NCBI GenBank assembly: GCA_048941015.1
Contig: JBHLNZ010000048.1
Coordinates: forward strand, 1-18,653
Length of the DNA stretch: 18,653 nucleotides
From: Promethearchaeota archaeon
Lineage (GTDB): Archaea > Asgardarchaeota > Lokiarchaeia > Sigyniarchaeales > SOKP01
Reading direction: 5' to 3'
Part shown: piece after piece, positions 3,866-7,454 of the stretch
Position numbering within the stretch: position 1 is the first letter of the stretch
Layout of the letters: every line of letters begins with the position of its first letter
Notes under the pieces: model-generated
The model's database searches: none
Told to the model about the DNA's origin: nothing
What the model saw: only the letters and a program-made list of their open reading frames with translations
Translations under genes and position numbers: made by a program

Positions 3866-4609
3866 CTATTTTTTTAAAACTTGTATTCTTTTATCTTTGG
3901 GGAGCTTTTCACTAGCGTATCTTAGAATTAAGCGAGATAGAACATTCTTATTAAGCATTAAGTAATCAAAAATTATCTCTGGCTTATAATTACTACAGGT
4001 TTTGAGAAGCCAACCAATTCCTTTTTCAATATAATTTTGATCAATAAAATTTAGCATTTTATTTATGTGATTAAATACGTAATCTTCATCAAAGGTCTTT
4101 TTTAGCATAATAATCTTCAAAAGAATAACCATTGAAGCCCTTCTAATCCATATATTATCTACGGAAGCCCAATCATCTATAGTTCTTTTAGCAAGAGCTT
4201 CATTACCCTTCTTTGCTAAAAAGGGCCCTAATACTCTGATACAGGTGCTATCACAATAGCTCCACGTATGACAGTGCTTTAGAAGTTCAATTTTGAACAA
4301 ATTTATGGTTTTTATATCAAAAAAATTTTTATAACGGTTTATATAAAATAATCCGGCGAATTTTTGTTCTTCTATATTTGATCTGGATAGATCTTTAAAA
4401 ATTTCAACTGCTAGCGAATATGAACTTTTATATTTATTATCTACATCCTTTACGATTTTTTCAATATTAGCAATTTTGATTCCATAAATAATGTAATTGG
4501 ATTTATCTGGATTTATGATTTTATACATCCTTGCCTTTTGTTCATCCATAAGATTTGGAGAATGTTTTTTCAAAAGTTCCTTGATTTCGAGTAATATTTT
4601 TTCTTTCAT
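3866..4609 (-). CDS. DNA alkylation repair protein (AlkD-like HEAT-repeat family)
   Basis: TWSYCD, W-x4-NIWIRRAS and YIEKGIGWLLK motifs typical of the DNA_alkylation family; ATGA overlap with the upstream radical SAM gene. Confidence 0.85.
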   Translation of the reverse strand: MKEKILLEIKELLKKHSPNLMDEQKARMYKIINPDKSNYIIYGIKIANIEKIVKDVDNKYKSSYSLAVEIFKDLSRSNIEEQKFAGLFYINRYKNFFDIKTINLFKIELLKHCHTWSYCDSTCIRVLGPFLAKKGNEALAKRTIDDWASVDNIWIRRASMVILLKIIMLKKTFDEDYVFNHINKMLNFIDQNYIEKGIGWLLKTCSNYKPEIIFDYLMLNKNVLSRLILRYASEKLPKDKRIQVLKK

Positions 4610-5742
4610 AAAAATTTATCTAGTCCGTTTTTTCTAATTAATTCTATGCTTTCCTTTAGAAAAGGCTCAACAAAATCTATCACTTGTGAATTAAAGTTTT
4701 TTAGTTTGGATAATTCTTTTCTTCTATAATAATTGAGTATAGATTCTTCAAGATTATTTAGATTTAATCCTGCCCATTTTAAGTTATTATTTGATTTTCC
4801 ATACTTTATTGCATCAATATATTCTTTATTTAAGAGCATTTCTGAGATTAGATAGTTGTATTTCCTAAAATCATTAGGAATCCATCTTTTAATCCTAATT
4901 GATATATCATATTTTTCACATAGGTTAAATAATTTTGTGTGAAATTCTCTAACATATGCTTTGGGAGGATAAATTTGTCCTTTATATAATTCTAATAAAG
5001 GTTTTATAACCTTTTTATATTTACTATTGTTTAATTTTTTTATGAAATATTCTGCTTGAGAATCACGTAAGGTTAATCCAGGAGAAAACAATAAAAAATC
5101 AGCACCAGCTCTTTTAGATTGTTTTATAACATCTTCCAAATTCTCATCATTATCTTCCAAAAATGGAATAATTGGAATAAAATAGGTCCCAACTTGAATT
5201 TTTGGCGCACTTTTTTTAATAGTTTTTAATGCTTCTAACCTCTCAGAAGGTGATGATGAGTATGGTTCTAAAAATTTAGCAAGTTCCTCATTAGTTGAAG
5301 AGATTGAAAATCCTACAGTGCACCAAGTATCATTAGCAATTTTATTCAAAATATCTATATCTCTAATTATCAGTTTGGATTTAGTAGCAATATTAATAGG
5401 GAATTTATGTTTTGCAATAACCTGAATCATTTTTCTTGTATGCTCAATTTCTTGTTCAATTGGCTGATAAGCATCATTTACCCCTCCTGGAGCGATAACA
5501 TCGGGTAATAATGTTCGAGCTCTTTTAAGTCTCTGATCTAATTTCTTATCAAAATCTGTTTTAATAATTACTTCATTTTCAAAATCATTTAAATAATATC
5601 TCTGACTTCTCGCATCACAGTAGATACAAGCATGAGCACAACCAGAATATGGATTTAAAGTGTAACGTGACCAAAACCATGAATCAGGATATTTTAATTT
5701 ATTTAAAACTGTTTTGAACTCCTTATAGATATACTTAACCAT
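4606..5742 (-). CDS. Radical SAM protein, SplB/Rv2578c-like DNA repair family
   Basis: LNPYSGCAHACIYCDAR (CxxxCxxC), DAYQPIE, IATKS and EPYSSSPSERL motifs. Confidence 0.88.
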   Translation of the reverse strand: MVKYIYKEFKTVLNKLKYPDSWFWSRYTLNPYSGCAHACIYCDARSQRYYLNDFENEVIIKTDFDKKLDQRLKRARTLLPDVIAPGGVNDAYQPIEQEIEHTRKMIQVIAKHKFPINIATKSKLIIRDIDILNKIANDTWCTVGFSISSTNEELAKFLEPYSSSPSERLEALKTIKKSAPKIQVGTYFIPIIPFLEDNDENLEDVIKQSKRAGADFLLFSPGLTLRDSQAEYFIKKLNNSKYKKVIKPLLELYKGQIYPPKAYVREFHTKLFNLCEKYDISIRIKRWIPNDFRKYNYLISEMLLNKEYIDAIKYGKSNNNLKWAGLNLNNLEESILNYYRRKELSKLKNFNSQVIDFVEPFLKESIELIRKNGLDKFL

Positions 5743-5834
5743 TATAATATTGTTAAATTTTATTAGTAAGCTGATTAATTAAATAAAAAATTTATTTTTA
5801 GCCAATTAAAATTTAACATTAATTAAAAGCTAGA

Positions 5835-5913
5835 GAAAAAACGCCTTGGCAACATCATTAAAAAGTGATTAAAATATGGAAAGGAAAGACACTACCTATA
5901 AAGGCGTTTTTTC
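5835..5913 (-). ncRNA. Candidate small RNA 1 (13-bp terminal inverted repeat, 53-nt variable interior)
   Basis: GAAAAAACGCCTT (5835-5847) pairs with AAGGCGTTTTTTC (5901-5913). On the minus strand a TATA-like TTTACAAA lies 16 nt upstream and a T6 run ends the unit. The repeat is certain; the RNA call and strand are inferred. Confidence 0.5.
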
Positions 5914-5929
5914 AATATAAATATACTAA

Positions 5930-5937
5930 TTTGTAAA
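5930..5937 (-). promoter_or_regulatory. Putative TATA box for element 1
   Basis: TTTACAAA on the minus strand, with the same 16-nt spacing and TTA continuation as the box before element 2. Confidence 0.4.
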
Positions 5938-6055
5938 TATATTTTTTAAGGTTTTGAAACATAATCGACATTTTATATTGAATTTTCGAAATCATATGTA
6001 AGATTTCTTAAGATTTAATTTAGATAGTCTTTAATAACGAATATCAAAAAGAAAA

Positions 6056-6132
6056 GAAAAAACGCCTTTTAAAAGAAGGGTTGAAAATTAATTGGCTGAT
6101 TCAAAGAATAATTTATTTAGAGGCGTTTTTTC
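6056..6132 (-). ncRNA. Candidate small RNA 2 (12-bp terminal inverted repeat, 53-nt variable interior)
   Basis: GAAAAAACGCCT (6056-6067) pairs with AGGCGTTTTTTC (6121-6132). Minus-strand TTTATAAA lies 16 nt upstream and a long pyrimidine tract follows downstream. Confidence 0.5.
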
Positions 6133-6148
6133 ATTAATATTATCTTAA

Positions 6149-6156
6149 TTTATAAA
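6149..6156 (-). promoter_or_regulatory. Putative TATA box for element 2
   Basis: TTTATAAA matches the archaeal TATA consensus, 16 nt from the element. Confidence 0.45.
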
Positions 6157-6245
6157 TTTATATTTGACTATTTAATTTCAAAGTTAAAAGATAATTTCAA
6201 TTATTTTTTTCGGGATATAAGGATAAATATTAATGATAAAGAATT

Positions 6246-6273
6246 TCGTGAAATGCTGATTTCACGATCAAAT
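6246..6273. repeat. Palindrome TCGTGAAAT-GCTG-ATTTCACGA (complete copy; recombination or protein-binding site)
   Basis: Perfect 9-bp arms at 6246-6254 and 6259-6267; 6257-6273 is repeated exactly at 7266-7282. Confidence 0.75.
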
Positions 6274-6342
6274 TAACTAGTATTTGATTTAATAGTTAAA
6301 ATGTAATAATACTTTTTTAAGATATAAATATAATAAATAACC

Positions 6343-6360
6343 TCGTGAAATGTTGATATC
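6343..6360. repeat. Left half plus spacer of the same palindrome (TCGTGAAATGTTGAT)
   Basis: 14/15 match to 6246-6260; right arm degenerate. Confidence 0.65.
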
Positions 6361-6411
6361 GCTTAAATCGCATTGTGGGTTTAACAATGAAATTAAAAAA
6401 AATGAAGAAAA

Positions 6412-7149
6412 TCATTCAAATTTCTTTGTATACTCCTTTATATTATCAGGAGGCCATGCTTTTGGGGTACTACCAAATCGAGTAAAACGATGATCACACC
6501 CTGAAGCACCATTTGCGATAGTTTTAGTACGTGAGAATCCATATCCCAGAACATGTGCGTGAGCAAAATCAAGAAGGCAAGCAAATGGCACATATTTCTC
6601 CGCTCCTAATTTTTTATACGCCTTAAGAATTCCACATTCAGAAATATTATAACCGAAATCAAAATCTTCATTAGTACCATCCACAAATTGCATAACCCAA
6701 TCATCAGGATATTTCCTTTTCTGTGAAATCTCACAATACTTCTTTAGAGGTTTAATATAAGCATCATTAAAAATGATATCTAAAAGATTTCCTCCACTTT
6801 CTTCTACTTTTTCTATTTCTTTTCTTGTTTCTATCTCTTTATATGTATTACTGAATTCACCAATTTCTCGATAAGTGTATCCTTCCTTTTCAAGGATGCG
6901 AAACATTGCTAATAAGGATACTTTAGCTGTAAGGGTTGAAATGAATGGATGCTTGCCCCCTCCGATATCAGTCATTTTGGTAAGAATATCTTCATACTCC
7001 CTTCTCATTTGATTGATTAGAGCTTCAGATTTTGACTCACTGAATCTCTCTACTAAAATATCTTTTGCAATTTGTAAAGATAATTCAAATTGTTTCATTA
7101 ACCTTGGTTTATTCTTAATATAATAGTCTTTAACATTTCCAGTTGGCAT
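6412..7149 (-). CDS. L-2-amino-thiazoline-4-carboxylate hydrolase-like (ATC_hydrolase family) protein
   Basis: C-terminal pattern ECG...ACLLD...GFSRTKTIANGASGCDHRF is typical of this family; real substrate unknown. Confidence 0.75.
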   Translation of the reverse strand: MPTGNVKDYYIKNKPRLMKQFELSLQIAKDILVERFSESKSEALINQMRREYEDILTKMTDIGGGKHPFISTLTAKVSLLAMFRILEKEGYTYREIGEFSNTYKEIETRKEIEKVEESGGNLLDIIFNDAYIKPLKKYCEISQKRKYPDDWVMQFVDGTNEDFDFGYNISECGILKAYKKLGAEKYVPFACLLDFAHAHVLGYGFSRTKTIANGASGCDHRFTRFGSTPKAWPPDNIKEYTKKFE

Positions 7150-7265
7150 TATATGACAACTTAAATTTAGAGGATCTAATTATTGGATTAATTAAAACCA
7201 AGTAAAAGTAGTAATTAAATTTAATTCTATTTCATAACTTCTCTTAAAAGAAATATTATGAACGA

Positions 7266-7282
7266 TGATTTCACGATCAAAT
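7266..7282. repeat. Right half of the same palindrome (TGATTTCACGATCAAAT)
   Basis: 17/17 direct repeat of 6257-6273, 25 nt from the 3' end of tRNA-Gly. Confidence 0.75.
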
Positions 7283-7307
7283 CATATTTTTTAAAAATTT
7301 ATTAAAA

Positions 7308-7379
7308 TGCGTCGCCCGGGAATCGAACCCGGGTCACCGGCTTGGAAGGCCGGAATCATAACCCCTAGACTAGCGACGC
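7308..7379 (-). tRNA. tRNA-Gly(TCC), intronless
   Basis: Acceptor GCGTCGC/GCGACGC+A, anticodon arm CCGGC-CT-TCC-AA-GCCGG, T-arm CCGGG-TTCGATT-CCCGG; CCA not encoded. Confidence 0.97.
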
Positions 7380-7454
7380 TTTATAAACCGCATGATCTAT
7401 AAAAGTATCATATCTTTTAACTTTACTGCTTTTAGTGATTATCCTCGAAGTATT

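Follow-up and report, generated by a model that had tools for sequence, protein, structure and literature searches.

Occlusion of the Shine-Dalgarno (SD) sequence and start codon is the classical mechanism of bacterial small RNAs (sRNAs). The bacterial GcvB RNA uses a short G/U-rich seed on C/A-rich sites and acts together with Hfq, and AbcR1 and AbcR2 are likewise Hfq-dependent. Archaeal riboregulation is known from a handful of cases in methanogens, haloarchaea and Sulfolobus. GcvB, a trans-encoded sRNA of enterobacteria, acts on mRNAs for the periplasmic substrate-binding components of ABC transporters for peptides and amino acids; its regulon lists oppA, dppA, livJ and livK, all of which it represses (PMC9299463). 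AbcR1 and AbcR2, tandem sibling sRNAs of the Rhizobiales, act on the mRNAs of many ABC-transporter binding proteins and silence them in or close to the start region (PMC4152367). Among the archaea, sRNA41, sRNA162 and loop 2 of sRNA154 from Methanosarcina mazei are intergenic and have been proposed as translational repressors that mask ribosome-binding sites (RBS) (PMC5867862; PMC3510493). In Haloferax volcanii, sRNA132 and s479 are linked to ABC-transporter operons for phosphate and zinc, respectively (PMC6560208, PMC8155600); haloarchaeal transcripts are mostly leaderless (PMC5867862). For Asgard archaea, a non-exhaustive literature search turned up no sRNA whose target had been defined.

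The DNA analyzed here is an 18,653-nucleotide stretch from a Promethearchaeota archaeon, referred to below as the window. The region 5743-6411 lies between two minus-strand genes, encoding a SplB-like radical-SAM protein (4606-5742) and an ATC-hydrolase-like protein (6412-7149), and contains two hairpins with nearly identical closing stems (GAAAAAACGCC / GGCGTTTTTTC). Each of the two elements, designated e1 and e2 (Table 1), has a TATA-type promoter, a GC-clamped closing stem of 11-13 bp and a T-run, and from these features both are predicted to be transcribed as independent minus-strand sRNA genes. We consider it probable that e1 and e2 are hairpin sRNAs of this strand, that the loop of e1 occludes the start of the mRNA for an Opp-type solute-binding protein (SBP), and that e2 is built on the same scaffold.

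Table 1. Predicted features of the two hairpin elements; positions are those of the window.
Feature	Position	Strand	Description
Putative sRNA gene e1	5836..5913	minus	about 77 nt; predicted start near G5913/A5912
e1 3' end	5836-5841	minus	T-run, seen as an A-run on the plus strand
e1 closing stem P1, 3' arm	5835..5847	minus	pairs with 5901-5913
e1 closing stem P1, 5' arm	5901..5913	minus	
e1 loop core	5863..5888	minus	anti-SD, anti-spacer, anti-AUG (CAU) and anti-codons 2-5
e1 inner helix P2, 3' arm	5848..5856	minus	pairs with 5888-5896; lineage-specific
e1 putative promoter	5930..5950	minus	TATA-like box about 21-29 nt upstream of the stem, then TACA-N4-(A/T)GTA palindrome
Putative sRNA gene e2	6056..6132	minus	tandem paralogue of e1, diverged; stem, promoter geometry and T-run as in e1, loop different
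e2 loop core	6071..6100	minus	opposite strand resembles an RBS; core conserved in G000 and G054
e2 putative promoter	6150..6168	minus	TATAAATT box; direct repeat D1, 79% identical to the e1 promoter flank

A sequence-only reading of the window had picked out an SD-like motif, a start codon and a short open reading frame on the plus strand of each hairpin, and its coordinates, strings and translations all match the window sequence. Within e1, AAGTGA and seven further nucleotides precede an ATG (5876-5878) whose frame reads MERKDTTYKGVFSI and then a stop, to 5920; within e2, AGGGTTGA and seven nucleotides precede a TTG (6092-6094) whose frame reads MADSKNNLFRGVFSLILS and a stop, to 6148. Both starts do share a frame relative to the stem: the GGC of its 3' arm is in frame with each of them, at distances of 27 and 30 nt. 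The string AAAAACGCC occurs four times in the window against 0.1 expected, and the 3' end of the 16S rRNA in the genus is GGAUCACCUCCU, a sequence taken from relatives because the assembly itself lacks a 16S gene. Both leaders had been likened to real ones in the window, and for AAGTGA of e1 the likeness holds: no pentamer is more enriched than AGTGA (5.6-fold) ahead of long ORFs in this genome, which makes AAGTGA a genuine SD variant here.

Given a genuine SD-like motif at the correct spacing from a plus-strand start codon, the plus strand might itself be expressed, as micro-peptide genes MERKDTTYKGVFSI and MADSKNNLFRGVFSLILS, possibly with a paired antisense RNA. We find this scarcely credible. 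Among 46 family members the plus-strand ORFs range from 1 to 27 aa, several of them stopping after 5-7 codons, and their frame changes with respect to the stem; only the first 4-5 codons are common to them (MEME/MERK, mirroring the target described below). Conservation at the nucleotide level spans the untranslated SD and spacer, which no peptide needs. The (K/R)GVFS motif that the two translations had been noted to share is present, but it carries no weight as a peptide signal, being the conserved stem GGCGTTTTTTC read in that frame. A small-protein gene or type I toxin was rejected for the same 46 members, neither reading frame nor peptide being conserved. The promoter evidence likewise goes against the peptide reading, with conservation confined to the minus strand. 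When eight genomes of the genus were aligned in minus orientation, a conserved block, (G)CAAAAAGTTATATTTAC, lay about 25 nt upstream of the stem and was followed by the stem and the T-run. A block at this distance has the geometry of an archaeal BRE/TATA element. The flank opposite the promoter was not conserved at these eight loci or at 20 further loci, the second genus included. Thus at the sequence level each element has the marks of a putative transcription unit of its own, with a TATA/BRE block conserved on the minus strand only and a T-run directly after the stem. The stem also has a preferred strand: in 52 members it contains 41 G·U pairs versus 5 A·C, which favours the minus strand as the RNA, since a plus-strand RNA would have 41 A·C mismatches instead.

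The closing stem of 12 pairs was 94.5% paired in 32 aligned members, compared with at most 75% in slid controls, and is compensatory in that its innermost pair alternates between CG, UA and AU. Predicted folds were more stable than shuffled sequences for both elements (e1, -22.3 kcal/mol, z -5.0; e2, -16.2 kcal/mol, z -4.5). In minimum free energy (MFE) folds the conserved core falls within a loop of about 31 nt, at the base of which is the lineage-specific second helix P2; this helix is kept as 7-9 bp of differing sequence in e1, in the copies of G054 and G020 and in a copy from the second genus; the mean unpaired probability of the loop core across the family is 0.76. Each RNA would accordingly form one long hairpin whose GC-clamped closing stem presents a mostly single-stranded loop of about 50 nt. 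No Rfam covariance model, including that of GcvB (RF00022), matched the window at its gathering score, and within 5700-6450 only chance-level matches (E of at least 0.29) were returned. Judged by the Rfam models, e1 and e2 belong to a new family. An archaeal C/D box sRNA was rejected on the grounds that no C/D family matched up to E 10, that e1 contains no CUGA on either strand, and that its conserved core is an anti-start-region string; H/ACA, terminator and CsrB-like sponge readings were also considered and dropped.

A covariance model built from the minus-strand alignment (R1) scored e1 at 71.5 bits (E 5.8e-9), with homologues in two genera, and e2 at 48.8 bits (E 8.6e-5). Run on 151 genomes of the order, representing 24 genera, R1 found the family in 34 of 41 genomes of the window's genus and 45 of 53 of the sister genus; under stricter filters it was not found in the 22 other genera searched. 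A single copy per genome is the rule, with two in the window genome (G000), its closest relative (G054) and G045. The order tRNA-Gly(UCC), sRNA, SplB-like radical-SAM gene is kept in both genera, and at all 34 loci checked the distance from the element to the radical-SAM gene, which follows it on the same strand, is 92-112 nt. This position, together with an ending in a hairpin and a T-run, is what would be expected of a cis-acting 5' leader or attenuator of the radical-SAM gene, in which the hairpin and U-run terminate or pass transcription and the likeness to an RBS complement is secondary. Such a leader is nevertheless very improbable. The adjacency is not specific, insofar as the whole neighbourhood from the tRNA gene onward is syntenic, and a separate conserved block (AATCTTAAATTTT) between the T-run and the gene is as expected of the gene's own promoter. 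Nothing in the radical-SAM start region is complementary to the loop, and extra copies (e2, and one in G045, G045a, about 1.1 kb before the gene) each carry a promoter of their own. A leader would also leave unexplained the co-variation of the loop with an unlinked transporter gene, described below.

The target of e1 was sought through its loop core, UUUCCAUUUCCAUAUUUUAAUCACUU. The complement of this core, the 25-mer AAGTGATTAAAATATGGAAATGGAA, was searched with up to three mismatches in 42 genomes of the genus and matched in 35 of them, while the reversed control pattern matched in none; the string of SD, start codon and codons in e1 is far beyond chance. Several of the 35 genomes matched twice, and the extra matches were start regions of a conserved gene (MEMEKKNVAIIILAIALIASGVGN...). 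Start regions of 16 orthologous genes in genus g1 match the consensus 25-mer. The orthologue in the window genome lies on the minus strand of another contig, C119, with its AUG at 67105, where ...UUUUAAGUGAUUAAAAAUAUGGAAAGGAAAGCACA... encodes MERKAQIAVGVIAIIAV... The sequence-only reading had proposed antisense guides for genes elsewhere in the genome and had named a start in MERK as the sign of a target for e1; this gene, which begins MERKAQIAV, is of that kind. The protein is a membrane-anchored, 681-aa family-5 (Opp/Dpp-type) substrate-binding protein (SBP_bac_5, PF00496, E 5.8e-53), and downstream of its gene come those for two OppB/C-type permeases and two ATPases that carry the oligopeptide C-terminal domain (oligo_HPY), such that the SBP gene heads an Opp-type oligopeptide ABC-transporter operon on C119.

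The C119 start region, AAGTGATTAAAAATATGGAAAGGAAAG, compares with AAGTGATTAAAA-TATGGAAAGGAAAG on the sense strand of the e1 loop. The two RNAs can form 26 pairs in two helices around one bulged A, so that the accessible region of e1 is complementary to the SD, spacer, AUG and codons 2-5 of an mRNA from another contig. By blastn-short the match is 26/27 (E 5.6e-5), and nowhere else in the 3.6-Mb assembly, the e1 locus itself apart, does the loop match as well. Among the 6520 candidate start regions, that of the SBP gene ranked first by duplex energy (RNA.duplexfold values, inflated by long interior loops, served for ranking only) and first by gapped pairing score, at 57, a score that none of 40 shuffled loops reached (53 at most). 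It was also first by cofold gain, computed for the top 250 of the 6520 start regions per sRNA, at -22.8 kcal/mol against -14.7 kcal/mol for the next independent gene; the cross-control of e2 with the SBP target gave a gain of 0.0. A substitution-only search for the e1 target found nothing, because the real target contains the 1-nt bulge, and it was blastn-short that recovered it. An ungapped, G·U-tolerant scan of the whole genome did not separate real from shuffled loops, the target included. The e1 target is significant only when the 1-nt bulge is permitted or when start regions alone are searched.

Because AGTGA is the commonest SD variant in this genome and dozens of loci have 13-20 nt in common with the loop, e1 could instead be a broad regulator that binds many mRNAs with a AAGUGAUUAAAAUAUG-type start, of which the transporter is merely the best. 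A LivJ-like gene in the window genome (C32:439, Peripla_BP_6) is the second-best BLAST match of e1 (22/23), and in G098 and G062, both of the second genus, a LivJ-like binding-protein start region is the top match outside the sRNA locus itself. In G107, also of the second genus, the best match is a gene inside another ABC operon. We judge broad regulation improbable, given that the part of the loop facing codons 2-5 tracks one gene family specifically and that every start region other than that of the SBP gene scores within the range of shuffled loops, the LivJ-like one included. The LivJ-like mRNA may be a weaker second target of e1. The G107 match spans 30 nt at 90% identity (L133:1500-1530, G107:C1:601790-601819, E 6.9e-5) and falls on the start region of an uncharacterized gene of more than 500 aa located directly after an ABC ATPase gene, a possible additional target.

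Returning to the SBP mRNA as the probable target of e1, loop and start region were compared across the 17 genomes that have both the sRNA and an orthologous start region. In most of genus g1 the target reads ATGGAAATGGAA and the sRNA loop UUCCAUUUCCAU. In G000 and G054 a T has been lost from the target (ATGGAAAGGAAAG) and the matching A from the loop (CUUUCCUUUCCAU), and in G002 the two read GGAAAAGAAA and UUUCUUUUCC, respectively. The second genus has GUGA(A/U)UUUAAUAUGG in the target and CCAUAUUAGAUCAC in the loop, a matched spacer change. Lineage variants of the start, MEME versus MERK versus MEKK, are found in loop and target alike. The mean pairing score was 55.2 for own-genome pairs and 48.8 for mismatched pairs, with a label-permutation p of about 5e-5 that ignores kinship; the co-variation rests on perhaps three to four independent evolutionary events. 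For G005 and G049, own-genome pairing was no better than pairing with foreign partners. In the second genus, the sRNA can form 16 contiguous pairs plus the SD with the Opp-type start region in G107, and 18 plus the SD in G137. Taken together, these comparisons indicate that the pairing has been maintained in evolution, with sRNA and target varying together.

The elements have terminal inverted repeats with A/T runs at either side, which would also suit non-functional or structural DNA. They could be a bidirectional terminator hairpin, as would suit their position downstream of a minus-strand gene in the window genome, or a MITE, or a decaying, inverted fragment of a transporter 5' end, to which the loop is indeed homologous in inverted orientation. 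The compensatory changes of loop and target are difficult to reconcile with any of these, as is the conservation of a 25-nt loop core and promoter between diverging flanks. A MITE would hardly be limited to two mutually adjacent copies in 3.6 Mb, at a position that is fixed and syntenic in two genera, and G054 carries the elements with no upstream gene to terminate. Structural or inert DNA is in our estimate very unlikely.

The preferred mechanism is therefore that of an sRNA acting on a start region in trans. The loop of e1 is the antisense of the SBP initiation region, from the GUGAU of the SD through the A/U spacer and the AUG to codons 2-5. Once made, e1 would pair over about 26 bp with the SBP mRNA, a duplex that should outcompete the 5-6 bp pairing between SD and 16S rRNA. 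Binding of the small ribosomal subunit would be blocked and synthesis of the binding protein shut down, and the mRNA may also be marked for decay. Repression is the assumed direction of regulation, and a signal that drives the sRNA promoter is likewise presumed.

Relative to the described systems, e1 appears to be functionally analogous to GcvB and not homologous to it. The target class is the same (SBP_bac_5 and possibly Peripla_BP_6), whereas the enterobacterial RNA (RF00022) and e1, from an archaeal host, have no homology in sequence or structure. Unlike GcvB, e1 would use a single large hairpin loop to present a near-perfect complement of about 26 nt, extending over the SD, the AUG and the first codons. 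AbcR1 and AbcR2 resemble e1 and e2 in their tandem arrangement and in having start regions of ABC binding-protein mRNAs as targets; they differ in being bacterial and in pairing through short anti-SD motifs arranged in two modules, and they share no homology with e1 and e2. The M. mazei RNAs are, like e1, intergenic archaeal sRNAs associated with RBS masking, which is experimentally supported for them and predicted from sequence for e1. Their sequences are unrelated to e1 and their targets are different (ACDS operons, a transcription factor and glnA2), as are the hosts, a methanogen and an Asgard-type archaeon. The H. volcanii sRNA132 and s479 are also unrelated in sequence, and start-region masking is not their described mechanism. 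The e1/SBP pair offers a concrete sRNA-mRNA pair with a precise pairing register. It would represent functional convergence with bacterial GcvB and AbcR1, and it suggests that SD-led initiation matters enough in these organisms to serve as a point of regulation. Peptide uptake, plausibly at the heart of a metabolism based on peptides and amino acids, would be under post-transcriptional control.

For e2, the same approach gave no comparable partner. This element is confined to G000 and G054, in each of which it precedes e1, and a pattern search of the 42 genomes returned only e2 itself in these two. No long complement of e2 was found in either genome, and BLAST of the G054 copy against its own genome gave no outlier. 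The gene starting with MADSK that had been predicted for e2 was not found; the best candidates, two tandem SCP2-domain genes on the minus strand of contig C32, start with MVDES... and MVDEG... Their start regions can form 9 + 11 + 8 bp with e2, with a cofold gain of -17.5 to -18.0 kcal/mol, as compared with -4.1 kcal/mol for the cross-control of e1 with SCP2. Three of 40 shuffled loops scored as well, and an unrelated MVDE gene equaled the SCP2 genes in score, so that the SCP2-family genes are candidate targets at chance level, plausible but not significant. The antisense-guide half of the sequence-only reading thus stands for e1, with its near-complete match to, and co-variation with, the SBP start region, and falls short for e2, for which no target stands out.

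A wider and more doubtful proposal is that the family constitutes a modular, re-targetable riboregulator scaffold in Asgard archaea, with e1 as the main switch of peptide uptake. A fixed promoter, GC-clamp stem and terminator would then form a cassette that duplicates in tandem, and the loop would be recast to mimic the start of a different gene, as between e1 and e2. The anti-start unit (UUUCCAU, up to six copies) and the anti-SD unit (AAUCACUU, two copies) would expand by slippage and thereby tune strength. Were this true, mimicry of start regions by loops would be a general route to translational silencers in these archaea, and e1 would control peptide uptake in peptide-fermenting, Lokiarchaeia-like cells.

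Several further features of these loci were observed. A TACA-N4-TGTA palindrome (for example TACAAATTTGTA; TACAAATTAGTA in e1) lies between the TATA box and the predicted sRNA start, at 5914-5935 of the minus strand in the window and at equivalent positions in L004-L012 and L108-L122, and is a candidate operator for a factor controlling the sRNA. In both genera the SBP genes are preceded, some 85 nt before the AUG, by a perfect palindrome, AAACTTATAAGTTT (G000:C119 at about 67180-67195, L076; also L058-L063, L136 and L138), which implies a strong or regulated SBP promoter and a putative leader of about 58 nt. A second sRNA variant with another promoter occurs in the genus (L033 in G044, L037 in G005, L038 in G017, L041 in G021, L044 in G050 and L067 in G051) and contains the anti-start unit UUUCCAU in tandem, up to six copies, as well as a duplicated anti-SD, AAUCACUUAAUCACUU. 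In the vicinity of the window elements, the SplB-like radical-SAM gene shares 4 nt with an AlkD-like DNA-alkylation-repair gene (3866-4609), both being minus-strand genes. In G054 (L052) the tRNA-Gly gene is followed directly by a hairpin, CGTGAAAGCCTGATTTCACG, and then by e2, whereas in G000 (6243-7380) the ATC-hydrolase-like gene is located between the tRNA-Gly gene and this hairpin (6247-6266), a difference that would be consistent with insertion of a gene cassette next to the tRNA. The Asgard archaea are the group closest to eukaryotes, and the window genome (3.6 Mb, 29% G+C) contains four actin-family genes (best 442 bits) and about 70 matches to Ras-family small GTPases, on contigs C3, C24, C46, C35 and many others, which marks it as Asgard-type, probably of the Lokiarchaeia type.
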